Part shown: positions 11,016-47,801 of the stretch, one piece after another
Layout: each line of letters opens with the position of its first letter
How positions within the stretch are numbered: the stretch's first letter is position 1
Source: an uncultured Alphaproteobacteria bacterium
GTDB lineage: Bacteria > Pseudomonadota > Alphaproteobacteria > HIMB59 > GCA-002718135
NCBI GenBank assembly: GCA_902592345.1
Contig: CACJEE010000001.1
Location: 46,038 to 110,037 of the forward strand
Direction: 5' to 3'
Length of the DNA stretch: 64,000 nt
Position numbers and translations under genes: made by a program
The notes under the pieces: generated by a model
Told to the model about the DNA's origin: nothing
The model's database searches: none
Seen by the model: the letters and a program-made list of their open reading frames with translations, nothing else

Positions 11016-11018
11016 TAA

Positions 11019-11753: not shown

Positions 11754-11786
11754 TTGAAATTTATAATAAAAATATAATTTGAAAAT

Positions 11787-12026
11787 ATGGAAAAAAAAAT
11801 AATCTTACCTAGACTTGGAGAAACAATGGAAATAGGCACTATCTCTAAATGGTTAATAGAAGAAGGTGATGAATTTAAAAGAGGTCAAATTATAGCTGAA
11901 GTAGATAGTGATAAAACTACAGTTGAGTTACCTGCTTTAGAAGATGGAAAACTCACTAAAATACTTTCCAAAGAAGGTGAGGAAATAGAAGTGGGCAGTG
12001 ATATTGCTATTTTTGAGTCAGTCTAG
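11787..12026 (+). CDS. free-standing lipoyl-attachment domain protein
   Basis: 79 aa matching an E2 lipoyl domain end to end (LPRLGETMEIGTISKWL...EVDSDKTTVELPA with the lipoyl-Lys DK motif). There is no linker, E1/E3-binding domain or catalytic domain. The 3' end overlaps the convergent kinase gene by 20 nt. Confidence 0.75.
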   Translation: MEKKIILPRLGETMEIGTISKWLIEEGDEFKRGQIIAEVDSDKTTVELPALEDGKLTKILSKEGEEIEVGSDIAIFESV

Positions 12027-19920: not shown

Positions 19921-19929
19921 TAACTATGA

Positions 19930-20970: not shown

Positions 20971-21009
20971 TTTTGAACAATATTCTATTTTAAACCTAAA
21001 TAAAATAAA

Positions 21010-21038
21010 AAAATCCCCCCTTTTTTTGGGGGGATTTT
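21010..21038 (-). terminator. rho-independent terminator/attenuator after the SBP gene
   Basis: On the minus strand AAAATCCCCCC-aaaaaaa-GGGGGGATTTT is followed by a T-run. It lies between the SBP stop (21056) and the ATPase start (20970). Confidence 0.7.
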
Positions 21039-21055
21039 GTATTAATTAAAACTTT

Positions 21056-29057: not shown

Positions 29058-29101
29058 TATGATGTTGTATAGTTTTTATAATTCAATTGGGGGGAAATAA
29101 T

Positions 29102-30574
29102 ATGAGTGATTTAGAAAATTTTGTAAATCAACCAGGCAGAGATAAATTAGTTAAAGATGTAAGAAATAAAATAAAAGAATTAGGAATTACTTATATCTAT
29201 TATCAATTTGTTTCTGTAACAGGAAGAATTGTTGGTAAAGGTGTTCCTGCAGATCATTGGGAAACTTTAGCAGAAAAAGGATTTCAATTAGTTTACGGTG
29301 CTACAGCTAATTTATTTGTAGACAGGCATGGTGAATATATTGGATATGGACCTGAATCATCTGAACTTGTAGGTATTCCTGAACCTGATACATTTGTGCA
29401 ATTGCCTTGGGATAAAAGAGTTGCACGTGTTTGGTGTACTTGTTTTAGAAACAGAGAAGAAGATGAAAATCCTGGAGGACATTTAACATCTGATTGTCGT
29501 GGTAATTTAAAAATTTTCCAAGATCAATTTCAAGAAAAATTTGGAATGAATATGCGTGCTGGTACTGAGCCAGAAATGATGTGGTTGACTAAGAAAGATA
29601 ATGGAGAGCCAACAGGAGATGGATTTTCAAGACCTTATTGTTATCATATTGACCAATTTGAATCCTTAAGACCTGTATATATGAAAGTAATTGAATATTG
29701 CCGTGCTATGGGTCTTGATGTTATCCAAGGAGATCATGAAGATGCGCCTGGTCAATTAGAATTAAATTTCATGTATGATGATGTTTTAAGGAATGCTGAT
29801 AGACTAACAACTTATCGACAAATTTGTGCTCAAGTTGCAAGAGAATTTAATTTAATTGCTTGCTTTATGAGTAAACCTTTTATGGGTGTTTCTGCCAATG
29901 GATGTCATACAAATGTTTCACTTTGGAAAGGTGGAGAATTAAAATCGACACCTATTGGCAACAATCCACTACCAGGTATGGATCAAGTTTTTACACATAT
30001 TTCAGGAGGTGAAAATATGTTTATGCCTGATCCAAAAATAGATCCAGTTAAACCTGGCCCTGTTGGATTAAATAGTATTGCTGGTTTATTAAAACACTTA
30101 CCTGCTTTAACTTGTTTAGGATCTCCAACAGTTAATTCTTATAGAAGACTTTGGGATACAGGTTTCTGGGCACCAGTATATGCAGATTGGGGATATCAAA
30201 ACAGAACTTGTAGTGTTCGTGTTTCTGCCCCTGGCCGAGTAGAATACAGATCAGTAGATTCATCTCATAACCCATATCTAATGGGAGCTGGTATTTTAAA
30301 AGCTTTTGAAGATGGTCTAGATAATAAAATGGATCCAGGAGAACCTGAGAAAAAAAATATTTATGATGCAATGAAAGAAGGCAAAACAGTTGATAAACTT
30401 CCTTTAACTTTAGGCGAAGCTATTGATCGATTAGATAGTGATAAAGTGGTTAAAGCCGCATTGCCTGAAGATATGCTTAGAGTCTTTATGCATTATAAAA
30501 AAGATGAGTGGGAAAAATTCCTTTCTGCAGTTACACAATGGGATGTTGATACTTACTTGGACGTATTGCCATAA
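29102..30574 (+). CDS. gmaS: gamma-glutamylmethylamide synthetase (glutamine synthetase family)
   Basis: I take ATG 29102 (MSDLENF...), preceded by GGGGGGAAATAAT. GS catalytic-domain motifs are present (EPEMMWL, GCHTNVSLW, NSYRRL). Linked to mgsABC. Confidence 0.8.
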   Translation: MSDLENFVNQPGRDKLVKDVRNKIKELGITYIYYQFVSVTGRIVGKGVPADHWETLAEKGFQLVYGATANLFVDRHGEYIGYGPESSELVGIPEPDTFVQLPWDKRVARVWCTCFRNREEDENPGGHLTSDCRGNLKIFQDQFQEKFGMNMRAGTEPEMMWLTKKDNGEPTGDGFSRPYCYHIDQFESLRPVYMKVIEYCRAMGLDVIQGDHEDAPGQLELNFMYDDVLRNADRLTTYRQICAQVAREFNLIACFMSKPFMGVSANGCHTNVSLWKGGELKSTPIGNNPLPGMDQVFTHISGGENMFMPDPKIDPVKPGPVGLNSIAGLLKHLPALTCLGSPTVNSYRRLWDTGFWAPVYADWGYQNRTCSVRVSAPGRVEYRSVDSSHNPYLMGAGILKAFEDGLDNKMDPGEPEKKNIYDAMKEGKTVDKLPLTLGEAIDRLDSDKVVKAALPEDMLRVFMHYKKDEWEKFLSAVTQWDVDTYLDVLP

Positions 30575-30594
30575 TATAAGAAAGGATAATTAGT

Positions 30595-31536
30595 ATGTGC
30601 GGAATTGCTGGAATAATTCACAAAGGTAAATCTACAAACGTAGGTGGAGAAATGCAAAAAATGCTGCAATCTCTAAAACATCGAGGACCAGACTCAACTG
30701 GCTATGCTTTATATGGAAATGGTGAGTCGAATAATTATATTTTAAGATTTAAAGTTGGTGAAAATGTCAAAGAAGGTAGTTCTGCAGTAATGGAGGATGA
30801 AAGTGTCTATCAAGAAAGGGTAGAACAGGTAAATTCAAAAATATCTACTTCAGGCGCAACTCTTCATAAAGAAGAGCAGATCACCCCATATTCTTATAGA
30901 TATGTAATTTCTTATGATGGAGATTTACTTGATTTAGCAAAACAAATTGAATCAGTTGAAATGACAGAAATTTTATCTCTAGGTAAGTCACTGGAATTAA
31001 TAAAAGATATCGGTGATGCTTCAGTTGTTGCTAACCAATATGATCTCAGTGATTTTGCTGGTACTCATGGCATTGGGCACACTAGAATGGCAACTGAATC
31101 TGGTGTGGATATTCGTTCTGCTCATCCATATTGGGCGTATCCATTTAGTGATGTATCCGTTGTTCATAATGGTCAATTAACAAATTATTGGAATAATCGT
31201 AGAGCTCTTGAAAAAAAAGGGATGCGCTTTATGTCTACATGTGACTCTGAGCTAATTGCAGTTTATCTTGCTGATAAAATACGTAATGGAATAGATCTAG
31301 AAGAAGCGATGAGAGGATCCTTAGATGACTTGGATGGCGTGTTTACATATTTAGTCGCAACGAAAGATAAATTAGGAATGGCAAAAGATCATATGGCTGC
31401 TAAACCAATGGTATTGTATGAAAGTGATGATTTGGTAGCACTTGCTTCCGAAGAAGTTGCGATAAGAACCGTTCTTCCTGAAGAGATCGACACTTATGAT
31501 CCATATGAAGGAGAGGTAAAAGTATGGCAAGCATAA
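30595..31536 (+). CDS. mgsA: N-methylglutamate synthase subunit A (class-II glutamine amidotransferase-like)
   Basis: 313 aa with the N-terminal nucleophile MCGIAG and a GHTRMATES motif. Confidence 0.8.
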   Translation: MCGIAGIIHKGKSTNVGGEMQKMLQSLKHRGPDSTGYALYGNGESNNYILRFKVGENVKEGSSAVMEDESVYQERVEQVNSKISTSGATLHKEEQITPYSYRYVISYDGDLLDLAKQIESVEMTEILSLGKSLELIKDIGDASVVANQYDLSDFAGTHGIGHTRMATESGVDIRSAHPYWAYPFSDVSVVHNGQLTNYWNNRRALEKKGMRFMSTCDSELIAVYLADKIRNGIDLEEAMRGSLDDLDGVFTYLVATKDKLGMAKDHMAAKPMVLYESDDLVALASEEVAIRTVLPEEIDTYDPYEGEVKVWQA

Positions 31537-32366
31537 AAAAACATAAATCTACTGAAATGGGTTTGCATGATGAAGTTTTAACAGGCCGTACCCAACAAGT
31601 TTTTTTTAATCCAGAAGAGACAGAAAATTTCTTTTATCATGACGCCCATAAAGTTGACTTTAATAAAAGAACAGAAATTGATGCAAATAATTTAGAATGT
31701 ATTAATATCAATAGAAAAATAAACGAACTAATGGCTAAAGGTTATGGAACAATTGTCATAAAAAATCCTGGATCAAAACATAGTATAGGTGTTGGAATTT
31801 TAAATAAACTGAACTTAATTATAGAAGGTAGTCTTGGATATTTTGGAATAGGTTCAGTTGATGGGCCTGTTGTAAGAATATCTGGAAGAGTTGGCTGGTC
31901 TTGTGCTGAAAATATGATGGCTGGTAAAGTTGTTGTAGAAAAAAATGCCGGATCTTGTTTTGGAGCAGCAATTAGAGGTGGAGATTTAATTTGCAAAGGA
32001 AGTGTTGGCGCTAGATCAGGTATTGATATGAAAGGTGGCACTATTATAGTAGGTGGAGATGCCGGAGCCTTTACAGGCTTTATGATGCAACGAGGAAGAA
32101 TAGTTATTCTTGGAGATGTTGGTCCTAATTTAGGTGACTCACTTTATGATGGCACTATTTTTGTTGGAGGTTCAATTAAATCATTAGGCGCTGATGCTGT
32201 TGAGGCGGAGCTAACTGATTTAGATATAGCTTGGTTAAAAAGAAAAATAAAAGTTTCCGAAATTGATAAAAAAATTGATTATAAAAAAATTACAAAAATT
32301 GTTTCAGGAAAAAAATTATGGAATTACGATAATTTAGAACCAACTGAGAGAAAAGGTGCAATTTAG
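31524..32366 (+). CDS. mgsB: N-methylglutamate synthase subunit B (GXGXG-motif domain)
   Basis: 280 aa. Glycine-rich beta-helix repeats as in the GltB C-terminal domain. 13-nt overlap with mgsA. Confidence 0.8.
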   Translation: MASIKKHKSTEMGLHDEVLTGRTQQVFFNPEETENFFYHDAHKVDFNKRTEIDANNLECININRKINELMAKGYGTIVIKNPGSKHSIGVGILNKLNLIIEGSLGYFGIGSVDGPVVRISGRVGWSCAENMMAGKVVVEKNAGSCFGAAIRGGDLICKGSVGARSGIDMKGGTIIVGGDAGAFTGFMMQRGRIVILGDVGPNLGDSLYDGTIFVGGSIKSLGADAVEAELTDLDIAWLKRKIKVSEIDKKIDYKKITKIVSGKKLWNYDNLEPTERKGAI

Positions 32367-32379
32367 AAAGGATTGAATA

Positions 32380-33729
32380 ATGGCTAAAAAAAATAAAAAA
32401 AATACAGATAAAAGTTTATTAGGTCGTAATTCAATTTTTACTCCTGATGTAATAAACGATATTCATATTAAGTCGCAGTTAGGCAGATACCGTATGCGTG
32501 GTATGGCTCTTATGAAAAAAATACCTCACTGGGATGATTTAACATTCTTACCTGGCACTCTTACTAGATTTGTAATTGAAGGGTATAGAGAGAAATGTGA
32601 AACAAAGACTGTAATTGGTCCACGATGTAAAAACCCAATAGAATTAGATATTCCAGTTTATATAACTTCAATGAGCTTTGGCGCTTTATCTTATGAAGCA
32701 AAAACTGCACTTGCAAGAGGAGCAACAATGGCTGGAAGCGCAACATGTTCAGGTGAAGGTGGAATGATTCCAGATGAAAGAAGATATTCTCACAAGTGGT
32801 ATTATCAATGTATTCAATCTCGATATGGTTTTAATCCGCACCATGCTCAATTAGCGGATGGAATAGAAGTATTTATAGGACAGGGTCAGAAAGTTGGAAT
32901 GGGTGGACATTTGATGGGACAAAAAGTTACTGACCAAGTTGCTGAAATGAGGTCTTTACCCGCTGGTATTGATCAGAGATCACCGGCTAGACATCCTGAC
33001 TGGTTAGGGCCTGATGATCTGGCATTAAAAGTGCAGGAACTTAGAGAATTAACTGATAACCAAGTACCGATTCAATTAAAACTTGGTGCAGCTAAAGTTT
33101 ATGATGATGTTAGAATGGCAGCTAAATGTGATCCAGACTCTATTTATTTAGATTGTATGGAAGGCTCAACTGGTGCAGGCCCTCATATTGCTGCAGCTAA
33201 TACAGGTATTCCTGGTATAGCAGCCGTAAGAGAAGCAAGAAGAGCATTAGATGATGTAGGGAAATCAGGAGATGTTACTTTAATTTTTGCAGGTGGACTT
33301 AGAGATGGGGCAGATATGGCAAAAGCTTTAGCACTAGGCGCTGATTGTATTTCTGTTGGCACAGGTGCATTAGTTGCACTTAATTGCAATAAAGATATTC
33401 CGGAAGCTGATTTTGAAAAAGAATTAGGAGTAGAGGCAGGGTACTGCTATCATTGTCATACAGGAAGATGTCCAGTAGGTGTTGCAACCCAAGATCCTGA
33501 ATTAAGAAAAAGATTAAATCCAGATGATGCAGCGCTTAGGGTTTATAACTATTTACATGCGATGACCTTAGAGGCTCAACTTTTAGCAAGAGCATGCGGT
33601 AAAACCAACATTCATTCATTAGAACCAGAAGATCTTGCTGCATTGACTATGGAAGCATCTGCACTTGCAAAAGTACCACTTGCAGGAACAGATCATACAG
33701 TAGGTGTTGACAACTTCCATTCAATTTAG
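32380..33729 (+). CDS. mgsC: N-methylglutamate synthase subunit C (FMN-dependent glutamate-synthase-like domain)
   Basis: 449 aa with MSFGALS and GEGG motifs and a C-terminal GGLRDGADMAKALALGAD FMN-barrel pattern. Confidence 0.8.
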   Translation: MAKKNKKNTDKSLLGRNSIFTPDVINDIHIKSQLGRYRMRGMALMKKIPHWDDLTFLPGTLTRFVIEGYREKCETKTVIGPRCKNPIELDIPVYITSMSFGALSYEAKTALARGATMAGSATCSGEGGMIPDERRYSHKWYYQCIQSRYGFNPHHAQLADGIEVFIGQGQKVGMGGHLMGQKVTDQVAEMRSLPAGIDQRSPARHPDWLGPDDLALKVQELRELTDNQVPIQLKLGAAKVYDDVRMAAKCDPDSIYLDCMEGSTGAGPHIAAANTGIPGIAAVREARRALDDVGKSGDVTLIFAGGLRDGADMAKALALGADCISVGTGALVALNCNKDIPEADFEKELGVEAGYCYHCHTGRCPVGVATQDPELRKRLNPDDAALRVYNYLHAMTLEAQLLARACGKTNIHSLEPEDLAALTMEASALAKVPLAGTDHTVGVDNFHSI

Positions 33730-34253: not shown

Positions 34254-35141
34254 ATGTGTGGTATAGTAGGTTTATATTTAAAAAAGAAAAAATTGCATAA
34301 TAAACTTGGGTTTTATTTAAGTGGTATGCTTGATAATATGTCATCAAGAGGACCGGACTCTGCAGGTTTTGCAATATATAATAATAAAGAATCAAAAAAA
34401 TATTATAAATATTCCCTTTGTTTAAATAACACATTATCAAGTGATTTTGAGCAAGTTGTTAATCAAAAATTTAAAGATATCACAATAAAAAATATTTCAG
34501 ATCATATAGTTGTTCAAACAACGACTACACCTAAAAAATTTATTTCTTATATTCATAAAAATTTTAGACTAATTTCATTAGTAGGTTATGGAAAATCAAT
34601 CGAAATTTTTAAACAAGTTGGAAATCCATCAGAAATAGTTAAAAAATTTAAGCTAGAAAATTTTTCTGGCTCACATGCAATCGGTCATACTAGAATGGCA
34701 ACTGAAAGTGCAATAACAGTCAATGGATCACATCCTTATTCAACTGGAGAAGATGAATGTTTAGTTCATAATGGCTCTTTATCTAATCACAACAATCTAA
34801 GAAGACAATTAATTAAAAAAGGTAAAACATTTGATTCTTTAAATGATACTGAAGTAGCTGCAGGTTATATAAGCCAAAAATTATCAGAAAATAAATCAAT
34901 GAAAAAAACTTTAACAGAATCTCTTACAGATTTAGATGGTTTTTATACTTTTATTGCTGGTACTAATAAAGGATTTGCTGTCTTAAGAGATGAAATTGCT
35001 TGTAAGCCTGCTGTCATAGCAGAAAATAATGACTATGTTGCTGTAGCTTCTGAATTTCAGGCTATGGCCCATCTTCCTTATGTTAATAAATCTAATATTT
35101 ATGAGCCAAAACCAGGAGTTGTATATACATGGGGAAAATAG
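34254..35141 (+). CDS. class-II glutamine amidotransferase-like protein, MgsA paralog
   Basis: 295 aa with the MCGIVG nucleophile and a GHTRMATES motif. By eye, far more positions differ from mgsA than match. Confidence 0.8.
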   Translation: MCGIVGLYLKKKKLHNKLGFYLSGMLDNMSSRGPDSAGFAIYNNKESKKYYKYSLCLNNTLSSDFEQVVNQKFKDITIKNISDHIVVQTTTTPKKFISYIHKNFRLISLVGYGKSIEIFKQVGNPSEIVKKFKLENFSGSHAIGHTRMATESAITVNGSHPYSTGEDECLVHNGSLSNHNNLRRQLIKKGKTFDSLNDTEVAAGYISQKLSENKSMKKTLTESLTDLDGFYTFIAGTNKGFAVLRDEIACKPAVIAENNDYVAVASEFQAMAHLPYVNKSNIYEPKPGVVYTWGK

Positions 35142-35824
35142 AAAATTTAGATTTTAAAAAAAACACTTTAAGAAAAATAAATAATTATCTCCAAAACATT
35201 AGTTATAAAAATAACAAAAGAGAATTTACTGTAAAAAATCCAAGTGGGCATCATGCTATATGTGCAGGATTAACTGAAAACATATTCGTAAAAATTAATG
35301 GACATGTTGGATATTATTGTGGAGGTATGAATCAAAAAGCACATATTACTATTAATGGTAATGCTGGGACTGGCTTAGGTGAAAATATGATGTCTGGTTT
35401 AATCCATGTAAAGGGTAATGCCTCGCAGTCTGCTGGTGCTACTGCACATGGGGGGACAATTATTATAGATGGTGACGCTAGCTCTCGCTGTGGTATTTCA
35501 ATGAAAGGTATTGATATAATTGTTAAAGGGTCTGTAGGTCATATGTCTGGATTCATGGCTCAATCAGGAACAATGCTTATTTGTGGTGATGCTGGTGAAG
35601 CACTTGGTGATAGTATCTATGAGACTGTTATCTATTTAGCAGGAAAACCAAAGAGTTTAGGTGTTGACTGTGTTGAAAAAAAAATAAACAAAAAAGATAT
35701 AAAAAAAATTGAAGATTTATTGAAAACTGGAAAGATAAAAAAATTTAAAGTAAAAGATTTTAAAAAATTTGGATCTCAGAGAAAACTATATAATTTTAAT
35801 ATAGATAACGTCTCTGATTATTAG
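35129..35824 (+). CDS. GXGXG-motif protein, MgsB paralog
   Basis: 231 aa of glycine-rich repeats. It has the same 13-nt overlap with the upstream gene as the mgsA/mgsB pair. Confidence 0.8.
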   Translation: MGKIENLDFKKNTLRKINNYLQNISYKNNKREFTVKNPSGHHAICAGLTENIFVKINGHVGYYCGGMNQKAHITINGNAGTGLGENMMSGLIHVKGNASQSAGATAHGGTIIIDGDASSRCGISMKGIDIIVKGSVGHMSGFMAQSGTMLICGDAGEALGDSIYETVIYLAGKPKSLGVDCVEKKINKKDIKKIEDLLKTGKIKKFKVKDFKKFGSQRKLYNFNIDNVSDY

Positions 35825-35825
35825 T

Positions 35826-37157
35826 ATGGCAAAAAAGAAAAAAAAAATATTCACAACTCCACGTAAATCATGGACTTTTGACGATTATACAAATTCAGAA
35901 ATAAGAAGAGCAGCTGCAACTGGTATTTATGATATTCGTGGTGGTGGCTCAAAAAGAAAACTACCTCATTTTGATGACCTACTTTTTTTAGGAGCATCTA
36001 TGTCTCGGTATCCTCTTGAGGGTTATAGAGAAAAATGTTTAACGAATGTTGTTTTAGGATCACGTTATGCAAAAAATCCTTTAGAACTTGATATTCCAAT
36101 AACAATTGCAGGTATGAGTTTCGGAGCATTATCTGGCCCGGCTAAAGAAGCTTTAGGTAGGGGTGCATCTATAGCTGGAACCTCAACTACAACTGGAGAT
36201 GGAGGTATGACCAAAGAAGAGAGAGGTCAATCTAAAACACTTGTATACCAACTTCTTCCTTCTCGTTATGGAATGAATCCTGAAGATTTGAGAAAAGCTG
36301 ATGCAATTGAAGTTGTTATTGGTCAAGGAGCAAAACCTGGTGGTGGAGGTATGTTATTAGGTCAAAAAATTAGTGACCGTGTGGCAGAAATGAGAGATCT
36401 ACCCAAAGGGATAGATCAAAGATCAGCATGCCGACATCCTGATTGGACAGGCCCTGATGATCTAGCGATAAAAATTACTGAACTTAGGGAAATAACACAA
36501 TGGAAAGTCCCTATCTTTGTTAAAATTGCAGGAGCTAGACCGTACTATGATACTGCCTTAGCTATAAAAGCGGGAGCTGATGTAGTTGTGCTTGATGGTA
36601 TGCAGGGTGGAACAGCAGCAACTCAAGAAGTTTTTATTGAAAATGTTGGACAACCTACATTAGCTTGCATACGTCCCGCAGTCGACGCACTTCAAGATTT
36701 AAATATGCATCGAAAAGTGCAACTTATTATTTCTGGAGGCATTCGAAATGGAGCCGATGTGTCTAAGGCACTTGCTTTAGGTGCAGACGCCGTATCAATT
36801 GGGTCGGCAGCTATGATAGCGATTGGTGATAATGATCCTAAATGGGAAAAAGAATATAAAAAACTTGGAAGTGTATCCGGAGCATATGACGATTGGCATG
36901 AAGGTAATGATCCTGCGGGTATATCTACTCAAGATAAAAATTTAATGAAAAGATTAGATCCTATTAAAGCAGGTAAAAAATTATCTAATTATTTAAAAGT
37001 TATGACTTTAGAAGCACAAACAATAGCAAGGGCTTGCGGTAAAAATAATTTGCATAATTTAGAACCTGAGGATCTTTGTGCTTTAACTGTTGAATCTGCT
37101 GCTATGGCTCGAGTTCCTTTAGCTGGCACGAACTGGATACCTGGTTTTGATAAATAA
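35826..37157 (+). CDS. FMN-dependent glutamate-synthase-like protein, MgsC paralog
   Basis: 443 aa with MSFGALS, GDGG and GGIRNGADVSKALALGAD motifs collinear with mgsC. Confidence 0.8.
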   Translation: MAKKKKKIFTTPRKSWTFDDYTNSEIRRAAATGIYDIRGGGSKRKLPHFDDLLFLGASMSRYPLEGYREKCLTNVVLGSRYAKNPLELDIPITIAGMSFGALSGPAKEALGRGASIAGTSTTTGDGGMTKEERGQSKTLVYQLLPSRYGMNPEDLRKADAIEVVIGQGAKPGGGGMLLGQKISDRVAEMRDLPKGIDQRSACRHPDWTGPDDLAIKITELREITQWKVPIFVKIAGARPYYDTALAIKAGADVVVLDGMQGGTAATQEVFIENVGQPTLACIRPAVDALQDLNMHRKVQLIISGGIRNGADVSKALALGADAVSIGSAAMIAIGDNDPKWEKEYKKLGSVSGAYDDWHEGNDPAGISTQDKNLMKRLDPIKAGKKLSNYLKVMTLEAQTIARACGKNNLHNLEPEDLCALTVESAAMARVPLAGTNWIPGFDK

Positions 37158-37871: not shown

Positions 37872-38414
37872 TTAAATTTGCTTAAATTTATTTTTGATTG
37901 GAGAAAAATGAAATATTTCAATATTTGCATTTAAATATGGGTTAAAGAAAAAATTATGCCAAAATGTATATTTCCACCTTGAATCGTTTTTTTTTAATTT
38001 AATAATATTAACTGGAAAAGAAAAACCGGTATCTCTCTCAAAAAATTGTGTATTTAATTTTTTTTTCTTAATAATTTTTTTATATAATTCTGAATTAACA
38101 TCAAAAGTAGCAGCAAAGGAACCATCAAAGTTAGCGGGGGTATTATAATATTCTGATGAAAGAAGTTTTACAATTTTATCAAACCTTATTTCAGGTTCAT
38201 TAGTTTGTTTAATCATAAATTCAAACATTTTAGCTGTATCATTGCAGTTTTTTTCTAGTAGTACTGATCTAATACTACAAAGTTCTTTGTTTGATTTAAT
38301 TTCTGAAAGATTAGCTAATGTTCCTTCAGATGGTTTTCCACTAAACATCCTGAAATTACGTTGTCGAATACTGCACTGCCAAACAACAAAATCACTCCAA
38401 CCAATCTTTGACAT
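37872..38414 (-). CDS. hypothetical protein
   Basis: 180-aa ORF starting 15 nt downstream of the GS-like gene on the same strand. I recognise no family. Confidence 0.5.
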   Translation of the reverse strand: MSKIGWSDFVVWQCSIRQRNFRMFSGKPSEGTLANLSEIKSNKELCSIRSVLLEKNCNDTAKMFEFMIKQTNEPEIRFDKIVKLLSSEYYNTPANFDGSFAATFDVNSELYKKIIKKKKLNTQFFERDTGFSFPVNIIKLKKNDSRWKYTFWHNFFFNPYLNANIEIFHFSPIKNKFKQI

Positions 38415-38429
38415 GTTTAATTTATAAAT

Positions 38430-39785
38430 TTAACAATCTAAAGTATTATCTCTTTCCCATTGAGTTATTATATTAGATTTATTTGATTTCGATTTTTTGA
38501 AGCCAATTCTTTTTTCTTGAGATGAATTATACTTTTTAATTTCTCTATTTTTTAACGTTATGTAGGAATTGATAACATCTTTACCAAAAGCAGACTTAAG
38601 AACTTTACTTTTATTTAGATTATTTAATGCTTGATTTAAACTTAATGGTAATTTTTTTGCACCTTTAACTTTATGCGCTTCTTCATACATATTAACTTTA
38701 ATAGGTTTACCTGGGTTTCTTTTTTTATCCAAACCATCTAATCCTGCTGCAATAATTCCAGCTTGTAATAAATAAGGATTAGTTGCTCCATCCATTAACC
38801 TTAATTCAAATCTACCTGAGCCGGGAACACGTATCATATGAGTTCTATTATTACCAGAATAGGTAATAGTGTTAGGAGACCAAGTAGCTCCAGAATCAGT
38901 AACAGGAGCATTAATTCTTTTATAACTATTAATGGTTGGATTAAACCACGCAGTTAAAGCTTCAGCTGAGTTCATAATTCCACCCATAAAATGGTAAGCA
39001 GTTTTTGATAAGCCTAATTGATCTTTTTTATCTAAAAATAAATTCTTACCTTTTTTATTCCAGATTGATAGGTGCGCATGACACCCATTTCCAGTTTTAT
39101 CTATAAAGGGTTTTGGCATAAAGGTAGCTCTTAAACCTACTTTTTCTGCTAAAGTTCTAACCATAAATTTAAAAAAAACATGTCGGTCAGCCGTTTGTAG
39201 GCAGTCTGAAAAATCCCAATTCATTTCAAATTGTCCATTAGCATCTTCATGATCATTTTGGTATGGACCCCAACCAAGCATAATCATTGAATCACATATA
39301 CCTCTAATTAAATCATACTGACGCATCAATGCAGATTGATCATAGCAAGGTTTATCAGCAATATCTTTTTGATCTGCAATAGAATCACCACTTGGAGAAA
39401 TTAAAAAATATTCACATTCAACACCACTTTTTAAGTGCATATTCTTCTTTGCTAATTTATTAATTTGATTACGTAACATAACGCGAGGAGAGGCATCTAC
39501 TGGTTTACCATCCATCCATAAATCTGCTGCTAACCAACCAACATCCATTTGCCATGGAAGTTGTATAAAACTATTCGGATCAGGTATTGCAGCCATATCT
39601 GGGTCAGATGGAGACATATCTAAGTACGTAGAAAAACCAGCAAATCCTGCACCTTCTTTTTGCATTTCTTTTATAGATTGAGCAGGGACTAATTTAGATC
39701 TAAGTACTCCAAAAAAATCTACATAACTTATTAAAAAGTATTTTATTTTTTTCTTTTTTGCGACCTCCGCCAAGTTTATAGCCAT
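38430..39785 (-). CDS. glutamine synthetase family protein (gamma-glutamyl-amine synthetase-like, PuuA/GlnA-like)
   Basis: 451 aa with GS motifs GVECEYFL, NGCHAHLSIW and NSYKRI. A Lys/Ser-rich C-terminal tail of about 30 aa is not typical of GS. Confidence 0.8.
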   Translation of the reverse strand: MAINLAEVAKKKKIKYFLISYVDFFGVLRSKLVPAQSIKEMQKEGAGFAGFSTYLDMSPSDPDMAAIPDPNSFIQLPWQMDVGWLAADLWMDGKPVDASPRVMLRNQINKLAKKNMHLKSGVECEYFLISPSGDSIADQKDIADKPCYDQSALMRQYDLIRGICDSMIMLGWGPYQNDHEDANGQFEMNWDFSDCLQTADRHVFFKFMVRTLAEKVGLRATFMPKPFIDKTGNGCHAHLSIWNKKGKNLFLDKKDQLGLSKTAYHFMGGIMNSAEALTAWFNPTINSYKRINAPVTDSGATWSPNTITYSGNNRTHMIRVPGSGRFELRLMDGATNPYLLQAGIIAAGLDGLDKKRNPGKPIKVNMYEEAHKVKGAKKLPLSLNQALNNLNKSKVLKSAFGKDVINSYITLKNREIKKYNSSQEKRIGFKKSKSNKSNIITQWERDNTLDC

Positions 39786-41744: not shown

Positions 41745-41800
41745 ATCGTTCATCTCATTAATTGAGTGAGACGGAAGTAGGTGAAATCCGAAGGAACGCA
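41745..41800 (+). promoter_or_regulatory. glutamine riboswitch (glnA RNA motif) in the amt leader
   Basis: AUCGUUCAUCUCAUUAAUUGAGUGAGACGGAAGUAGGUGAAAUCCGAAGGAACGCAG. P1 is CGUUC (41747-41751) paired with GAACG (41794-41798). The conserved ACGGAAGUAGG and CGAAGGAACGC cores are present. Located upstream of an ammonium transporter, a typical context. Confidence 0.8.
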
Positions 41801-41809
41801 GTTCATTCC

Positions 41810-41880: not shown

Positions 41881-43047
41881 ATGACGTTGGAAGAATTAAA
41901 TGTTTTTGTCACCACACAAGCAAACGTGGGCATGGAAGCTTACTATTGGTGGTGTACAGGACTAATGATTATTATTCACGTTGGTTTCTTAATGTATGAA
42001 GTAGGCGCTACAAGAATGCAAAATGCTGTTTCTTCAGGTGTTAAAAATTTATTAGCATTTGCATTTATGATACCAACATTTTGGCTATTTGGATGGTGGA
42101 TCTACTTAGCTTTTCCAGGAGGATTTGTACCTATTGATTTAGAAGGATACGGAGTTCCATGGAATGTTTCAATGGGACCAATGCTAAGTGACCAAGCTAC
42201 CGGTGTATTCTGGGCTGCATTTACTCTATTTGCTTGTACTACTGCTTCAATTTTTTCTGGAGCTGTAATTGAAAGAATTAGAATTAGTGCATTTGTATTT
42301 CTAGCAGTTGTTTTAGGATCTGTTGTTTGGATTTTAGCAGCTTCTTGGGGATGGCATCCAGATGGATGGCTTGTAACTGGATGGGGATTCCATGACGTAG
42401 CGGCTGCAGGGTGTGTTCACACTGTTGCAGGACTATTTGCATTTGGGGTGCTTTTAAACCTTGGACCAAGAGTAGGAAAATATAATGATGATGGCTCTAT
42501 GAATGATCTTGAAGGTCATAGCTTAGTTCTATCTTTTGTTGGCTTATTAACTTTGATTGTAGGTTTCTTTGGATTCCTAGGAGCTTGTTTAATTTGGGCA
42601 GGATCAGATTTTGGAGGTTGGGTAAATATTTATGGTGCACCAGCTACATTATCTTCTTTTGCATTCAATACTTTGATGGGTCTAGCTGGAGGCATGATCG
42701 GTGCTTTCTGGTGGAGTAAAGGAAATCCTTTCTGGATGATGTCAGGTGGACTAGCAGGTATATTCATATGTGCTGGTGGTCTTGATATTTGGTATCCTGG
42801 GTTTGCATTTATTCTTGGAACAGTTGCAGGATGTGTAATTATTCCAGCAAACAATTGGCTTCATAACACTTTTAAAATAGATGACTGTGTAGGAGCAGTA
42901 TCAATTCACGGTGTTTGTGGTATCTTAGGTATGTTGTGTGTAGGACTTTTTGCTTCTGGTTTTCCAGCAGCAGGAGATATTCCAGCTTCAAATCTAACTG
43001 GTCAAATTGTTGGTGCTATTGTATGTTTTATATGCAAGTTTAGCTGA
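41881..43047 (+). CDS. amt: ammonium transporter (Amt family), apparently truncated at the 3' end
   Basis: 388 aa with conserved DVAAAGCVHTVAG and SIHGVCGILG (twin-His) motifs and a strong AAGGAGG SD. The ORF ends (…GQIVGAIVCFICKFS*) only part-way into the expected 11th TM helix. Confidence 0.8.
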   Translation: MTLEELNVFVTTQANVGMEAYYWWCTGLMIIIHVGFLMYEVGATRMQNAVSSGVKNLLAFAFMIPTFWLFGWWIYLAFPGGFVPIDLEGYGVPWNVSMGPMLSDQATGVFWAAFTLFACTTASIFSGAVIERIRISAFVFLAVVLGSVVWILAASWGWHPDGWLVTGWGFHDVAAAGCVHTVAGLFAFGVLLNLGPRVGKYNDDGSMNDLEGHSLVLSFVGLLTLIVGFFGFLGACLIWAGSDFGGWVNIYGAPATLSSFAFNTLMGLAGGMIGAFWWSKGNPFWMMSGGLAGIFICAGGLDIWYPGFAFILGTVAGCVIIPANNWLHNTFKIDDCVGAVSIHGVCGILGMLCVGLFASGFPAAGDIPASNLTGQIVGAIVCFICKFS

Positions 43048-43116
43048 AAGTAAAATTTCACCTGATAAAAGCTCTACATTGCCAAGGTTATAAATTTCAT
43101 AGTCAATATTATTCAT
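42994..43116 (-). pseudogene. 40-codon remnant resembling the N-terminus of a MetX-type (homoserine O-acetyltransferase-like) alpha/beta hydrolase
   Basis: The minus strand reads MNNIDYEIYNLGNVELLSGEILLSAKLAYKTYNSTNNLTS*. The pattern L-x-SG-x-x-L-x(4)-LAY-x-TY is typical of MetX N-termini. The remnant runs into the amt 3' end. Confidence 0.3.
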
Positions 43117-43146: not shown

Positions 43147-44562
43147 TTAATATAACCTTAGATATTCTTTTACTTCCCAATCTGTAACAGCCTGATGATA
43201 TCTTTCCCATTCATCATTTTTATATTGAACATATGAATTTAACATTACTTTACCCATTACTTTTTCTGCAATTTTATTTTTTTGTAAAGCTTCAGTAGCT
43301 TGAAGTAAATTTCTTGGAAGACGTCTTATGCCAAGCTTTTTCATATCTTCAGTTTTTAATGCGTAGAGATCAAAATCAGAGGGTTTTCCAGGATCAGTTT
43401 TATTTTGAATACCATCTATTGCAGCTGATATAGTCATACCAAGTGCTAAGTAAACATTCATTGTTAAATCAGCCGCACGGTTTTCTATACAGTATCTATT
43501 TTGTGGTAATCTAAATTGTGCTGAGCGATTATTATGACCATACGTAATATTAGTTGGTGCCCACGTATGAACTCCGCCCTCAAAACCACCTACAGTTGGT
43601 ACTAACCCATTATATGAATTTACTGTTGGACAAGTAATTGCAGTTATAGCTTCTGAATTTTCAAGCAAGCCACCAACTGCATGCATTGCATCTTGAGACC
43701 ATTTATCACCATCTTTAAAAACATTTGTATTTTTCTTTATATCATTGAGTGAAAAATTTATATGCCCTCCTGAACGCCAATCACCTATAGTTGGTTTTGG
43801 CATGAAGGTGACAAACATATCATGTTTTTTCGCCACTTCTTTTAAAAGTATTTTTAAAAATACTAATCTATCTGCCATTTGTAGAAGATCAGTATAATGA
43901 AAATCTAATTCAAATTGAGAATAAGCACCTTCAGCAACAACATCGTGTAAGTCCCATCCTAACTCACCTAATATATCCATCATTTCTTTTAAAAAATGCA
44001 TTGAATCTAAAGAATATTCAACATCATAGCCAAATGCTTGTCTTCTTGGTTGAATGCCATGAGGTGGATCATTATCTATTGCCTTAACAGGCTCACCTTT
44101 TTCGTTGTATTTCATTACAATGAACTCAGGCTCTATGCCTGCAAAACCTTGATACCCTTGTTCTTGTTTTTCTTGAATGATTTTTTTCAGAGCTTGTCTT
44201 GGACAAACATTGTAGGGAGCGCCTTCCCAAAACAAATCAGCAAATATTATGGCTGTTGTTTTATCCCACGGACAAACATATACAGCATTAAGATCAGGAA
44301 GCATTATTTGATCAGGATCAGCTGGTGTTAACTCAGGAACAAAAGATATTGAATGAACTGCAAATTGTGGACCTTTACCCATACATAAAGCTTCAAAATC
44401 ACTCATAGGAACAGGTTTAGTTTTTGGTATCCCGTGCATATCAATCCAACTAGATAAAACATATTTAACTCCTGCATCTTCAAGTCTTTTTTTGGTCGAT
44501 GCTATTTCAGGTTTATTTCTTTCTATAGCCTCGCTTAAGCTTTCATAATAAATTTTGCTCAT
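43147..44562 (-). CDS. glutamine synthetase family protein (type-III/GmaS-like gamma-glutamyl-amine synthetase)
   Basis: 471 aa with GS motifs IEPEFIVM, SGGHINFSL and NSYNGL. This is the third GS-family gene in the window. Confidence 0.8.
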   Translation of the reverse strand: MSKIYYESLSEAIERNKPEIASTKKRLEDAGVKYVLSSWIDMHGIPKTKPVPMSDFEALCMGKGPQFAVHSISFVPELTPADPDQIMLPDLNAVYVCPWDKTTAIIFADLFWEGAPYNVCPRQALKKIIQEKQEQGYQGFAGIEPEFIVMKYNEKGEPVKAIDNDPPHGIQPRRQAFGYDVEYSLDSMHFLKEMMDILGELGWDLHDVVAEGAYSQFELDFHYTDLLQMADRLVFLKILLKEVAKKHDMFVTFMPKPTIGDWRSGGHINFSLNDIKKNTNVFKDGDKWSQDAMHAVGGLLENSEAITAITCPTVNSYNGLVPTVGGFEGGVHTWAPTNITYGHNNRSAQFRLPQNRYCIENRAADLTMNVYLALGMTISAAIDGIQNKTDPGKPSDFDLYALKTEDMKKLGIRRLPRNLLQATEALQKNKIAEKVMGKVMLNSYVQYKNDEWERYHQAVTDWEVKEYLRLY

Positions 44563-44585
44563 TAGTTATCCTTCCTATAATTTTT

Positions 44586-44984
44586 TTATTCTATACCCAT
44601 ATCTTCAGGATCAATCCCTGGTACATGCGTAAGTCCAGCTTTCTTTTTCCAATCATGAGGATAGGCTGCGTAGAAAATTACACATGTTTCATCACATTCA
44701 TATGCAATATGATTGTCTTTTGGCACATATAAAACGTCTCCTGGATTACAGACATATGATTCTCCATCACAAGTAAGTCTGAATGAACCTTTCATACAAT
44801 ATATAATTTCATCACATGTTAAATCCCATGGTACTGATATTTTGTTTAGAAAATTTAAACCTCCACACATGGTGTCACTTACTTTTGAAGTTACAAAGGG
44901 CTTAATATAAGTTTGACCCGGCTCAAGTGTATGCAACCGGTGTTCTATATCTGAAAATTTGTATAATTGAGGTTTGTTACCCAT
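44586..44984 (-). CDS. cupin-domain protein (cupin_3/EutQ-like)
   Basis: 132 aa with a W...DEIIYCMKGSFRLT.DGE....PGDVLYVPKD pattern typical of small single-domain cupins. Confidence 0.6.
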   Translation of the reverse strand: MGNKPQLYKFSDIEHRLHTLEPGQTYIKPFVTSKVSDTMCGGLNFLNKISVPWDLTCDEIIYCMKGSFRLTCDGESYVCNPGDVLYVPKDNHIAYECDETCVIFYAAYPHDWKKKAGLTHVPGIDPEDMGIE

Positions 44985-44997
44985 GATCTACCTTTCT

Positions 44998-45420
44998 TTA
45001 TGATGTTTGTATTTTTTCGTTTAGTTCTACTTTGTAACCATCCGGATCTTCACAAAATGCTATTACTCTAGTTCCGTGTTTCATTGGTCCTGGCGGTCTT
45101 GTAATTTTTATTCCTGCTTCCGATAAACTTTCACAGGCTTTGTATACATCTGGTGTTTCAACACAAATGTGTCCCCAACCATTACCTTTCTCGTAAGGTT
45201 CTGCTTGATCCCAATTATATGTTAATTCTAGGGTTGGGAATTCTGTTTCTGGACCATAACCAATAAAAGTATTTGTAAATTTTCCGTCTGGATAATCAGT
45301 TTTACGTAAAACTTTCATGCCTAGTATGTCACAATAAAATTTTAATGATAATTCAAGATTTTGAACACGCATCATAGTATGTGCTAGTCTAAAACCAGAG
45401 GAAATTTCATTATCTGTCAT
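44998..45420 (-). CDS. gloA: lactoylglutathione lyase (glyoxalase I)
   Basis: 140 aa with HTMMRVQNLELSLKFYCDILGMKVL...LELTYNW...GHICVE, collinear with GloA. Confidence 0.85.
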   Translation of the reverse strand: MTDNEISSGFRLAHTMMRVQNLELSLKFYCDILGMKVLRKTDYPDGKFTNTFIGYGPETEFPTLELTYNWDQAEPYEKGNGWGHICVETPDVYKACESLSEAGIKITRPPGPMKHGTRVIAFCEDPDGYKVELNEKIQTS

Positions 45421-46504
45421 TTATAACCTTTTTTTTATTTTTTTTGTTTTGCCCCATAGATTTAATCATAATTTGTTGAAATGCGCGAATACTATTTTCC
45501 CAATGAGGGGATAATAATCCACCATTTTTAGACACGGGGGATGATCTACCTAACTGAAGCCTCTCACATATCTCATGATCTTCTTTATGAACTTTCCACC
45601 AAAGATCCTTAACACTTTTGATTTGATTTTTTGTAAGGTTATTACCTTCAGTAGTATAAATAATTCTTTTTTGATGAGTAATGCCGGGTTCAACTGGTAG
45701 ATTTAAATGAACACCTATTTGTCCAGGATAATATGTCCCTATAATAAAATTTGGAAATAAAGACAAATATTTTGAACTTACCGCCAAGCTGTCTGCAGAA
45801 GTGTTTTCATTTTTTAAATCAACAGCACTTCCATAACATCTTCCATCAACTAAAGTATAATGATCTTTAAGAGGTTGACTTGTAGTTGTTTTATGCACAA
45901 ATTGAACGTGATAAGGCTCTATAAAATTTTCAATTAAAAATTTCCAATTTGTATATACTTTTCCAAAGTCTAATGTTGCAACTTGTTTTATTTTTTTTAA
46001 ATTAAAATCTTTAAGTTGCTTAATTAATGGTGAGGCATATTTTTCAAACGGCAATGCATTGTTATTTAAATTGATAAAAATCCAATCATTCCAGATTTTA
46101 ATTCTTATAGATTTTAGTCCATTATCTTCATTTTTAAAACCTTTTGGTGTATGATTATTAGTTCCTCCAAAGTGAGGCGCTCTAATCAGATTGCCATTTA
46201 AGTCATAGAGCCAGGCATGATACGGACAGTTTATATATTTTCCAAGATTCTTATTTTCATCAACTAATTTTAAACATCGATGACTGCATACATTGTGGAA
46301 GGCGACAATTTCATTTTCATTATTTTTTAAAATTAGAATTGGTTTATGGGCAATAGTTAGAGTGACAGCATCGCCAACAGATTTTAGTTCATGAGCAAAA
46401 CCAACAAACATCCAATTATCAGAAAATACTGTTTCGCCTTCTTTTATCCAAAAATCATTATCAGTATAAGATTCTGATGGCAGTCCTCTAAAAATAGTGC
46501 TCAA
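45410..46504 (-). CDS. Rieske [2Fe-2S] non-haem-iron oxygenase, alpha-subunit-like (quaternary-amine/choline-monooxygenase-like group)
   Basis: 364 aa with Rieske motif CSHRCLKL...CPYHAW. The catalytic domain has EPYHVQFVH. No reductase or beta subunit is nearby. Confidence 0.8.
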   Translation of the reverse strand: MSTIFRGLPSESYTDNDFWIKEGETVFSDNWMFVGFAHELKSVGDAVTLTIAHKPILILKNNENEIVAFHNVCSHRCLKLVDENKNLGKYINCPYHAWLYDLNGNLIRAPHFGGTNNHTPKGFKNEDNGLKSIRIKIWNDWIFINLNNNALPFEKYASPLIKQLKDFNLKKIKQVATLDFGKVYTNWKFLIENFIEPYHVQFVHKTTTSQPLKDHYTLVDGRCYGSAVDLKNENTSADSLAVSSKYLSLFPNFIIGTYYPGQIGVHLNLPVEPGITHQKRIIYTTEGNNLTKNQIKSVKDLWWKVHKEDHEICERLQLGRSSPVSKNGGLLSPHWENSIRAFQQIMIKSMGQNKKNKKKVINDR

Positions 46505-46706: not shown

Positions 46707-47801
46707 ATGACTAGAGCTAAAATAGATAAGAATAATTGCTTAGTTATTTATGAGGATCAATTCAGCAATTATCATTTACACCCTTTGTGGCTACGTGAGA
46801 GATTAACTGACCCTGATTTTTTGGATAGTAATAATTATCAAAGGTTATATGAGCCATCTTTAATAACTCAAAATATAAAAATCAAAAATTTTTAAATAGA
46901 GAAAGAAATTTTAAAAATAAAGTTCTCAGATGGGGTAGAAGGATCATTTTCTTTAAATGTCTTAATAAGTGAATTAAAGCAAAAAGATATAATTCCTGAA
47001 AAAAAACCTTGGAAAAATGAATTTGAAAATTTACCAATTTATGATTTTAAATCTTTGAATGAAGCTGAAGTTTTTCTAAATTTACTTTCTGACTTCCAAG
47101 AATTGGGTTTTGTAATAGTTAAAAATACATCAGCAGAAGAGGGGACAGTTATAAAATTTGCTGAAATGTTTGGCCCTATTAGAACAACAAATTTTGGTAA
47201 GCATTTTGATGTGGTGTCAAAACCACAAGCTAATGATTTAGCTTATACAAGTCTAGGCATTAAGGCTCACACAGATAATCCTTATAGAAAACCTATGCCA
47301 GGAATTCAAATATTGCATTGTATATCTAATGAAGCAAAAGGTGGAGATTCATCTTTGGTTGATGGGTATGCAGTTGCTGAATATTTAAAGATAAATGAGC
47401 CGGAAATGTTTGAAATTCTAACAACTACAGATGTATTATTTAAATTTGTTGATAAGGATATTATTCTTGAGAATTACGGTAAGTTGATTGAGCTTGATCA
47501 TAATGGAAAATATTTACAAAGTAGGTTTAGTGGTAGACTTGATTATGTTCCATATTTAGACCCGTTACAGTTAAAAAAATTTTATGCAGCTCGAAAAAAA
47601 CTCTTTCATTTATATGAATCAGAAGAGTTTGAATTAAACTTTCGTTTAGATAGTGGTATGCTGATGATGTTTGATAACATCCGAGTTTTGCATGGAAGAA
47701 CTGAATATGATGTTAATACAGGTTTTAGACATCTGCAAGGTTGTTATATTGATCACGACTCAACAGAGGGTAAGTTGAGAAGATTAAAGTCTAATTTGTA
47801 A
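46707..47801 (+). pseudogene. gamma-butyrobetaine hydroxylase/TauD-family Fe(II)/2-oxoglutarate dioxygenase interrupted by one in-frame TAA
   Basis: ORFs 46707..46895 and 47055..47801 are in the same frame. The translation reads through as ...IKIKNF*IEKEILKIKFSDG... with no other stop. The N-terminal DUF971-like domain and HTDNPY...GGDSSLVDG...FDNIRVLHGR motifs are intact. Confidence 0.75.

Follow-up and report, generated by a model that had tools for sequence, protein, structure and literature searches.

What reaction would call for a Rieske oxygenase, a glyoxalase I, a cupin and a relative of glutamine synthetase (GS) to be encoded side by side? The question is raised by a 64-kb stretch of DNA (hereafter the window) from an uncultured alphaproteobacterium (contig CACJEE010000001.1), in which positions 43147-46504 carry four intact open reading frames (ORFs) on the minus strand. 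A first-pass annotation had read these genes as an operon in which an amine might conceivably be gamma-glutamylated and then oxygenated, following the logic of the tdn/atd systems of aniline degradation. Its gene identities, coordinates and spacings are borne out by the ORF list, Pfam and NCBIfam, while its chemistry fares less well. Comparison across genomes demonstrates that the genes belong to a module of three separable units. The explanation that we favour, with confidence a little short of even, is that a modular system for breaking down a small betaine-like or methylated amine survives in part as these four genes, which are as follows.

45410..46504, minus strand: RIE, an alpha-only Rieske non-haem-iron oxygenase of 364 aa with a TTG start (Pfam Rieske and Ring_hydroxyl_A)
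44998..45420, minus strand: GLO, a glyoxalase I (lactoylglutathione lyase) of 140 aa, its start overlapping the end of RIE (Pfam Glyoxalase, TIGR00068)
44586..44984, minus strand: CUP, an EutQ-like single-domain cupin of 132 aa (Pfam EutQ/Cupin_2)
43147..44562, minus strand: GS-like, a predicted ATP-dependent ligase of the glutamine synthetase family, 471 aa (Pfam Gln-synt_C)

RIE and GLO overlap by 11 nt, and gaps of 13 and 23 nt separate GLO from CUP and CUP from GS-like, respectively. The G+C content of the window is approximately 30%, and its closest relatives are two single-cell genomes of uncultured Alphaproteobacteria (95-97% nucleotide identity) and a MarineAlpha5 metagenome-assembled genome (MAG).

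Gene order and separable units

One genome per species was scanned with an alignment of the GS-like protein, which yielded at least 561 confirmed relatives; 80 loci were kept, and gene order was counted in the 57 species-level loci having at least 5 kb on either side of the GS-like gene. RIE and GLO are present in 46 of these 57. Among the RIE-bearing loci, GLO was found in 45 by ORF clustering and in the 46th (L033) by tblastn, and the two genes are co-oriented in every case, at spacings of -172 to +35 nt and very often with an 8-nt overlap. The same order and orientation, RIE-GLO-CUP-GS, was recovered by tblastn in Pelagibacterales (HTCC8051 and complete Pelagibacter genomes), Ruegeria, Roseovarius, Leisingera, Roseibium, Hyphomicrobiales and Rhodospirillales. 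Arenicellales, other Gammaproteobacteria, an Acidimicrobiia MAG and a Haliangium MAG possess all of the genes, but with the RIE-GLO pair inverted and divergent from the GS-like unit. Protein identity across the module-bearing lineages ranges from 50 to 90%, and GS-like is 69-77% identical between SAR11, Ruegeria and Arenicellales. Such an arrangement lies far beyond chance. The genes form one co-inherited, operon-like unit, as had been proposed, and the possibility that their order is not conserved beyond this genome fails on the 46 loci.

The adjacency of RIE and GLO is the most persistent feature of the module. Adjacent and co-oriented copies occur in about 60 loci spanning four phyla, overlaps of 8-11 nt being common, and in six loci (L052, L057, L076, L078, L079, L082) the pair has been split from the GS-like and hydrolase genes and inverted, yet has stayed together. 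It is likewise kept in large genomes of 4-5 Mb. CUP accompanies RIE-GLO in alpha- and gammaproteobacteria alike.

A fifth module gene directly follows the GS-like gene in 51 of the 57 loci. It encodes a 338-aa MetX-like alpha/beta-hydrolase (complete in L003 at 11447-12463) that scores 437 bits against the NCBIfam model PRK07581/NF005757 (cut-off 332) and 156 bits against the MetX model (cut-off 500), and is thus not MetX itself. This gene escaped the first-pass annotation; in the window it is deleted. In about 45 of the 57 loci the GS-like gene lies immediately 3' of RIE-GLO-CUP, with the hydrolase gene next in most. An additional, optional pair, present in 15 of the 57 loci and absent from the window, comprises a LigXa-type Rieske protein (~450 aa) and a D-isomer-specific 2-hydroxyacid dehydrogenase. 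In module versions from outside SAR11, ORF clustering of the 80 loci reveals an AsnC-type regulator as a conserved partner.

These genes fall into three separable units: firstly, RIE, GLO and CUP; secondly, the GS-like gene and the hydrolase gene; and thirdly, the second Rieske gene and the D-2-hydroxyacid dehydrogenase gene. All pairwise combinations of the three occur. The GS-like and hydrolase genes are found without RIE-GLO-CUP in five loci (L001, L019, L050, L080, L068), and in Aestuariivirgaceae, Roseovarius, Mesorhizobium and others they stand with the LigXa-type Rieske/dehydrogenase pair in place of the trio. Conversely, homologues of the cupin led to four gammaproteobacterial contexts in which an orthologous RIE-GLO-CUP trio has no GS-like or hydrolase gene within 9-10 kb. 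Identities to the window proteins of 50-55% (RIE), 55-61% (GLO) and 62-70% (CUP) indicate that these trios are orthologous to that of the window. The first-pass annotation had named dispensability of the GS-like gene, together with direct action of the oxygenase on a free substrate, as what would overturn its scheme; the former appears in comparative-genomic form only, as trios lacking the gene within the 9-10 kb surveyed.

The fullest oxygenase unit is that of Aliamphritea hakodatensis (L087, AP025281.1, 6110-13281), a cultured gammaproteobacterium that lends itself to experiments. Here, a divergent gene for a BCCT transporter is followed by RIE-GLO-CUP and then by genes for a reductase (10540-11499, 319 aa, FAD_binding_6 and Fer2), the hydroxyacylglutathione hydrolase GloB (TIGR03413, 320 bits against a cut-off of 201) and a GbdR-like AraC regulator, with a choline dehydrogenase gene nearby. 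A second context (L093) has the order RIE-GLO-CUP-reductase, and in a third the order CUP-RIE-GLO is linked to AsnC, the LigXa-type Rieske gene and the D-2-hydroxyacid dehydrogenase gene.

Throughout these genomes, source annotations are generic, consisting of labels such as 'choline monooxygenase', 'aromatic ring-hydroxylating dioxygenase', 'glutamine synthetase family protein' and 'cupin'. Module copies in MAGs assigned to 'Marinimicrobia' and 'Bacteroidetes' (L008, P0079) are 76-86% identical to the alphaproteobacterial proteins and probably reflect binning contamination. An arginase-family ureohydrolase gene, absent from the window, lies near the module in at least 13 loci (L005, L006, L009, L011, L020-L022, L026, L028, L035, L043, L053, L059, L067), and its recurrence in different lineages hints at guanidino compounds. 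The glnT gene of strain HTCC1062 (SAR11_1305) was considered as a GS-like orthologue and dropped, its reported neighbours being opuAC, an aminomethyltransferase gene and a sarcosine-oxidase-like gene, not RIE-GLO-CUP.

The enzymes and their active sites

Alignment of 27 sequences shows the RIE motifs C73-x-H75...C93-x-x-H96 and NWK..EN..E196-P-Y-H199....H204 to be invariant, so that RIE has the Rieske CxH...CxxH motif and the 2-His iron motif with its bridging acidic residue. Assignment to a named family is less straightforward. The best NCBIfam model, GbcA, scores 129 bits where the cut-off is 670, and no named equivalog is reached; matches to proteins of known structure (NagG 95 bits, CntA 87, Stc2 73, and also 3n0q) cover the N-terminal 200 aa only. 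In the AlphaFold2 (AF2) model (mean predicted local distance difference test, pLDDT, 69.7; predicted template-modelling score 0.73; residues 195-230 below 50), Foldseek places TPADO, Stc2, NagG and CntA at similar E-values. The top template-modelling score (0.68/0.69) and the lowest root-mean-square deviation at matching length (6.2 Å) belong to CntA, although model and search together do not separate CntA and Stc2 from TPADO and NagG. Structural alignments put identity to CntA/GbcA/Stc2-type enzymes at 20-24%.

Several features nonetheless ally RIE with the CntAB (YeaWX), GbcAB and Stc2 systems, namely an alpha-only Rieske protein of approximately 370 aa with a Glu-x-x-His bridging/iron motif, a class-IA-type reductase combining ferredoxin-NADP reductase (FNR) and [2Fe-2S] domains in the gammaproteobacterial orthologous operons (L087, L093), and neighbourhoods containing BCCT, a GbdR-like regulator and quaternary-amine genes. 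RIE differs from them in lying below equivalog level, in its invariable coupling with glyoxalase I and an EutQ-like cupin, and in having no adjacent reductase gene in the window or in the 80 GS-like-derived loci. We know of no CntA, GbcA or Stc2 operon with such a glyoxalase I/EutQ-cupin coupling. The earlier observation that no ferredoxin/reductase partner or beta subunit is encoded nearby holds: window ORFs of at least 60 aa contain no plant-type [2Fe-2S]/FNR motif and no second Rieske motif by regular-expression scan, tblastn detects no reductase homologue in the window, the same motif scan finds no reductase in the 80 loci, which are mostly alphaproteobacterial, and no beta subunit appears among their conserved ORF clusters.

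GLO is a genuine Ni/Co-type GloA, as judged by score (TIGR00068 glyox_I, 147 bits against a cut-off of 120), by identity to E. coli GloA (50% over 127 aa) and by retention of the residues aligned to E. coli His5, Glu56, His74 and Glu122, which we take to be the metal ligands. Orthodox as it is, GLO differs from the usual GloA/GloB system in sitting within a substrate-specific catabolic operon rather than alone; tblastn finds no GloB homologue in the 64-kb window, and GloB is supplied within the Aliamphritea operon. The MetX-like hydrolase was considered as a substitute for GloB, a role that is possible but weakened, since loci lacking GloA still have the hydrolase gene alongside the GS-like gene.

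CUP belongs to the EutQ family (Pfam EutQ, 59.6 bits against a cut-off of 21) and shares its fold, the AF2 model (pLDDT 94) finding its best Foldseek matches in the EutQ structures 4axo and 2pyt. Residues D58, E59, R69, D83, Y95, E96 and D98 are invariant, and the HxH metal motif is not present in the sequence. EutQ itself is characterised by acetate kinase activity and a place in an ethanolamine-utilisation operon; CUP has no such operon nearby, the ORF list and domain scans of the window revealing no eut genes near the module. A role as a DddK-type dimethylsulfoniopropionate lyase was dropped, given the missing HxH motif, the EutQ family assignment and a Foldseek match to DddK that is merely distant.

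The GS-like protein matches Gln-synt_C with 299 bits and falls below every named equivalog cut-off in its family, including TIGR03105 (365 bits against 470, exactly 469.6), GlnA (301 against 429) and the PuuA type (207 against 650). It is 32% identical to the bona fide gamma-glutamylmethylamide synthetase (GmaS) encoded in the window, 29% to E. coli GlnA and 25% to E. coli PuuA, and alignment with these three proteins shows that the metal and ATP residues are retained. Alanine occupies the ammonium-binding D50' position and tryptophan the Glu-flap position, both as in GmaS, which points to an organic amine rather than ammonium as the nucleophile.

The glutamate site, by comparison, has been altered. 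An invariant Trp262-Arg263 replaces the Asn/Ala/Thr-Gly that precedes SGxH, and an invariant Asn318-Gly319 replaces the Lys/Arg-Arg of the NSYKR motif; where PuuA reads Gly-Ser-Gly-Met-His and Arg-Arg, the GS-like family reads Trp-Arg-Ser-Gly-Gly-His and Asn-Gly. In RhGmaS, Asp177, Glu186 and Arg312 are catalytic, Gly231 and Arg288 bind a glutamate mimic, and mutation of the listed binding residues abolishes activity (PMC7948447). By RhGmaS numbering, GS-like keeps Glu186 (E218) and Arg312 (R346), while Asp177 has become Val209 and Arg288 has become Gly319. The arginine that binds the glutamate alpha-carboxylate (RhGmaS Arg288, GlnA Arg321, and present also in PuuA) is therefore glycine in GS-like. 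With such remodelling, Arg263 may compensate for the loss, or the acyl substrate may not be glutamate. As a highly conserved and well-defined departure from its family, the rebuilt pocket is a target in which to look for a new ligase specificity, and, were a non-glutamate acyl substrate to be confirmed, it would represent a new reaction class for the glutamine synthetase family.

Pathway and competing explanations

Gene identities, modular synteny, the GloA/GloB/reductase/BCCT/GbdR-like context in Aliamphritea and the altered glutamate site are established; from these we infer the reaction type, substrate class and order of steps. In the pathway that we favour, the first unit (RIE, GLO and CUP) would be self-sufficient, RIE acting as an alpha-only monooxygenase of the CntA/GbcA/Stc2 structural class with electrons from an FNR/[2Fe-2S] reductase encoded elsewhere in the genome. 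In a CntA-like hydroxylation, RIE would attack a nitrogen-bearing methylene carbon that lies next to a carbonyl group. Carnitine could supply two candidate substrates, 3-dehydrocarnitine and trimethylaminoacetone, the second of which has been reported as a metabolite of carnitine (PMC12482172); betaine aldehyde, derived from choline, and aminoacetone are also candidates. Thought was given as well to 5-aminolevulinate, ethanolamine, dimethylamine, opines and acetone. Breakdown of the resulting carbinolamine would give a free amine and a 2-oxoaldehyde, the latter being converted by GloA and glutathione to a D-2-hydroxyacyl thioester and the freed methylated amine feeding the tmm, tdm, gmaS and mgsABC genes of the surrounding island. 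The second unit would contribute a step of its own to this pathway, with amide formation at the expense of ATP and acyl cleavage, most likely trapping or carrying an amine without being a prerequisite for the oxygenase.

Most strongly, we infer that RIE makes a 2-oxoaldehyde consumed by the glyoxalase system, since RIE and GLO are inseparable, GloB has been recruited in Aliamphritea and the optional dehydrogenase is D-specific. The glyoxalase route yields D-hydroxy acids, with which a D-specific 2-hydroxyacid dehydrogenase beside the second Rieske gene is consistent. The earlier suggestion that GloA handles a methylglyoxal-type product is thereby strengthened. That the substrate is a quaternary ammonium compound is indicated indirectly by BCCT, the GbdR-like regulator and neighbouring carnitine, choline and trimethylamine (TMA) genes. 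Taken together, the data suggest Rieske-based catabolism of methylated or quaternary amines with two unusual features, a dedicated glyoxalase branch and a remodelled GS-family ligase. A more specific, two-part proposal, which would give SAR11-type and roseobacter genomes a hitherto unknown aerobic route, has the Rieske enzyme cleave an alpha-keto quaternary amine derived from carnitine or choline. The products would be a methylamine, trimethylamine or another, and a methylglyoxal-type aldehyde whose carbon a dedicated glyoxalase branch would carry; the GS-family enzyme, in turn, would use a non-glutamate, possibly betaine-type, acyl substrate, as suggested by the Trp-Arg/Asn-Gly remodelling. 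As a whole, we regard this conjunction as unlikely.

Several points weigh against the pathway as drawn. The association of the GS-like and hydrolase genes with the trio in most of the 57 loci could mean true dependence in Alphaproteobacteria, and the gammaproteobacteria that carry the trio by itself might encode a GS-like gene elsewhere in the genome. GloA in small SAR11-type genomes could be a mere housekeeping copy. Association with carnitine genes is seen in only about 7 of the 80 loci. RIE is as far from the formaldehyde-releasing N-demethylases GbcA and Stc2 as from the aromatic oxygenases TPADO and NagG, and its AF2 model is poor across the catalytic region. Finally, no published account of the module was found in the literature searched, and neither a 2026 paper on TMA regulation nor a paper on one-carbon (C1) metabolism in SAR11 mentions its genes.

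The alternative that survives best, though it too seems doubtful, is the original activate-then-oxygenate scheme, in which GS-like would make the gamma-glutamyl amide of a primary amine and RIE would hydroxylate that amide, with the MetX-like hydrolase or spontaneous collapse freeing glutamate or glutamine and a 2-oxoaldehyde for GloA. Position directly downstream of the trio in about 45 of 57 loci favours such a role, as does the resemblance to the amine ligase GmaS at D50' and the flap (PMC7948447). The scheme also matches the logic of the Ipu and Atd/Tdn/Npa pathways. In the latter, the aniline-type dioxygenase cannot do without NpaA1/AtdA1, and hydrolysis of the gamma-glutamyl amide falls to a second enzyme; AtdA1-A5, TdnQTA1A2B and NpaA1-A5 share with the module a GS-family ligase gene beside a Rieske gene and a second enzyme able to hydrolyse an amide (PMC11335346). 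Likewise, the Ipu/Puu sequence of ligation, oxidation of the protected amine and hydrolysis is formally possible for GS-like, RIE and the hydrolase.

The comparative data nevertheless weaken this scheme. The trio occurs without a GS-like gene in four gammaproteobacterial contexts, two of which have their own reductase, and GS-like with the hydrolase occurs without the trio; the oxygenase unit thus exists without the ligase, a clear difference from the Atd/Tdn/Npa systems. Glycine in place of the arginine for the glutamate alpha-carboxylate, which sets GS-like apart from GlnA, PuuA and GmaS, and valine in place of the catalytic Asp177 further argue against a gamma-glutamyl product. No GATase-like protein (AtdA2/TdnT/NpaA2) is found among the conserved clusters of the 80 loci, where the conserved partner is the MetX-like hydrolase, and there is no beta subunit in those clusters or adjacent reductase in the window or the 80 loci. 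The context, moreover, is one of aliphatic methylated amines, not arylamines. Compared with Ipu/Puu, the oxygenase is a Rieske protein, not a P450 or flavin oxidase, and the hydrolase is MetX-like, not a class-I GATase. With respect to the N-methylglutamate pathway, GS-like resembles GmaS as a GS-family amine ligase with alanine at D50' and the flap tryptophan, and stands beside gmaS-mgsABC in three lineages, but fails TIGR03105, is only 32% identical to GmaS and coexists with a true, separate gmaS gene 3.4 kb away.

Somewhat less probable again is that RIE acts as an N-demethylase that releases formaldehyde in the manner of GbcA or Stc2, with no 2-oxoaldehyde being formed and GloA and the cupin being co-located stress or housekeeping genes. 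The top NCBIfam model and the presence of Stc2 among the best structural matches are consistent with such an activity, as is location within a C1/methylamine island, and unrelated genes often share an operon in small genomes. The RIE-GLO adjacency, however, outlasts splitting and inversion, holds in the 4-5 Mb genomes and is joined by GloB in Aliamphritea. To our knowledge, and as a matter of established biochemistry, glyoxalase I has no action on the formaldehyde hemithioacetal.

An attack by RIE on an aromatic or heteroaromatic N-methyl betaine, such as homarine or trigonelline, with ring opening to dicarbonyls for GloA and methylamine for GmaS, is improbable. While the Ring_hydroxyl_A domain, the NagG and TPADO matches, the methylamine-pathway neighbours and the BCCT transporter would suit it, no ring-cleavage dioxygenase or dihydrodiol dehydrogenase is conserved among the ORF clusters of the 80 loci, GLO is a true GloA and not an extradiol enzyme, and RIE is CntA-sized and has no beta subunit. 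Lastly, a chance operon hitch-hiking without functional meaning in a hypervariable island, to which the variable flanks and the decay of this copy (a deletion and an adjacent nonsense codon) might point, is effectively refuted by the synteny data, the genes recurring in the same order and orientation in 46 of the 57 species-level loci, from Alpha- and Gammaproteobacteria to Acidimicrobiia and Myxococcota, and retains almost no probability.

Were the favoured pathway correct, its significance would extend well beyond one genome. Species representatives that carry the module number at least several hundred, among them SAR11 relatives and roseobacters, which are dominant surface-ocean bacterioplankton, and the module lies within islands that process TMA, trimethylamine N-oxide (TMAO), methylamine, carnitine and choline derivatives. 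If RIE releases a methylated amine aerobically, a source or turnover step for climate-relevant marine methylamines would have been overlooked until now, and osmolyte nitrogen would be tied to central carbon via glyoxalase chemistry.

Methylated-amine surroundings and damage to this copy

By sequence annotation, the window represents a TMA/TMAO/methylamine island (tmoXWV, tmm, tdm, mgsABC, gmaS). Features other than the four genes are listed by position.

17863-21997: TmoXWV-like OpuAC-type ABC system
22152-23486: tmm, trimethylamine monooxygenase (NCBIfam 745 bits, cut-off 675)
23483-25840: tdm, TMAO demethylase (NCBIfam 1111 bits, cut-off 1100)
27711-33729, plus strand: paralogous set of a soxB-like FAD oxidase, a third GS-family gene and an mgsABC-like GATase/GXGXG/Glu_synthase trio
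29087-30574, plus strand: the third GS-family gene of that set, 495 aa (TIGR03105 312 bits, below cut-off)
34254..37157, plus strand: mgsABC-type N-methylglutamate synthase genes (GATase_6/7, GXGXG and Glu_synthase domains)
38430..39785, minus strand: bona fide GmaS, gamma-glutamylmethylamide synthetase type, outside the module (TIGR03105 626 bits, cut-off 470)
41745..41802, plus strand: glutamine riboswitch directly upstream of amt (Rfam RF01739, 64 bits, gathering score 35, E 1.9e-12)
41881..43047, plus strand: amt, ammonium/methylammonium transporter family, clipped to 388 aa from 426 aa in L003 (positions 5-360 of the 399 of Pfam Ammonium_transp)
42994..43116, minus strand: hydrolase remnant of 32 native codons, 8 foreign codons and a stop, the sole trace of the hydrolase in the window by tblastn
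43021..43023, no strand: deletion junction (blastn and junction alignment)
46707..47801, plus strand: divergent neighbour encoding a TmpA/gamma-butyrobetaine-hydroxylase-like Fe/2OG dioxygenase, with an in-frame TAA at codon 63 (46893-46895)

The window showed no dmm-like gene carrying a [2Fe-2S] motif. The paralogous set lies directly upstream of the canonical mgsABC and could represent a GmaS/N-methylglutamate-like route for another amine, for example dimethylamine. Two EamA genes separate GmaS from the riboswitch and amt, which faces the module. Beyond the module lie a gene resembling BBOX (gamma-butyrobetaine hydroxylase) and genes for an M24 hydrolase and an aldehyde dehydrogenase. The riboswitch is the sole match of an Rfam scan of 36-52 kb, and a promoter/terminator scan gave fewer matches than shuffled controls and is hence uninformative. 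Directly downstream of GmaS, a 180-aa ORF (37872-38414, minus strand) has no Pfam or NCBIfam match and keeps its position in L003, L006 and L009.

Similar surroundings are found elsewhere. The module lies directly beside mgsABC-gmaS in Ruegeria, Roseibium and Arenicellales, and in some Ruegeria-type loci a BCCT or SsuA/TauT-like ABC transporter is inserted between the GS-like and hydrolase genes. In one SAR11 clade the module lies between a BKACE gene and an L-carnitine-dehydrogenase-like gene, with a 4HBT thioesterase, an OpuA transporter, BBOX, GDPD and a GMC oxidoreductase nearby.

The copy in this genome is damaged, its hydrolase gene deleted, amt clipped and the neighbouring dioxygenase gene interrupted by a nonsense codon, and its own case is correspondingly more modest. 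By blastn, the window lacks 1794 bp present in L003, L004, L006 and L009; the deletion removed the hydrolase gene, three small ORFs (82, 56 and 57 aa in L003) and 39 codons of amt, and no repeats are found at its ends. The junction string is missing from metagenome contigs and the intact string is present in three; the deletion is therefore private to this genome or assembly. One of these three contigs (L095) carries an intact RIE-GLO-CUP-GS-ABH-amt array (ABH, alpha/beta-hydrolase) in which GLO, CUP, GS-like and amt have 98-100% amino acid identity. Either this strain has truly lost the segment, or single-cell amplification or assembly has produced an artefact. In the Fe/2OG dioxygenase gene, codon 63 is TCT in L003 and L004 and TAA here, a difference of two substitutions. 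This gene is either a pseudogene or the product of a sequencing error, and an internal TTG at 47055 would yield a 248-aa protein without the N-terminal domain.

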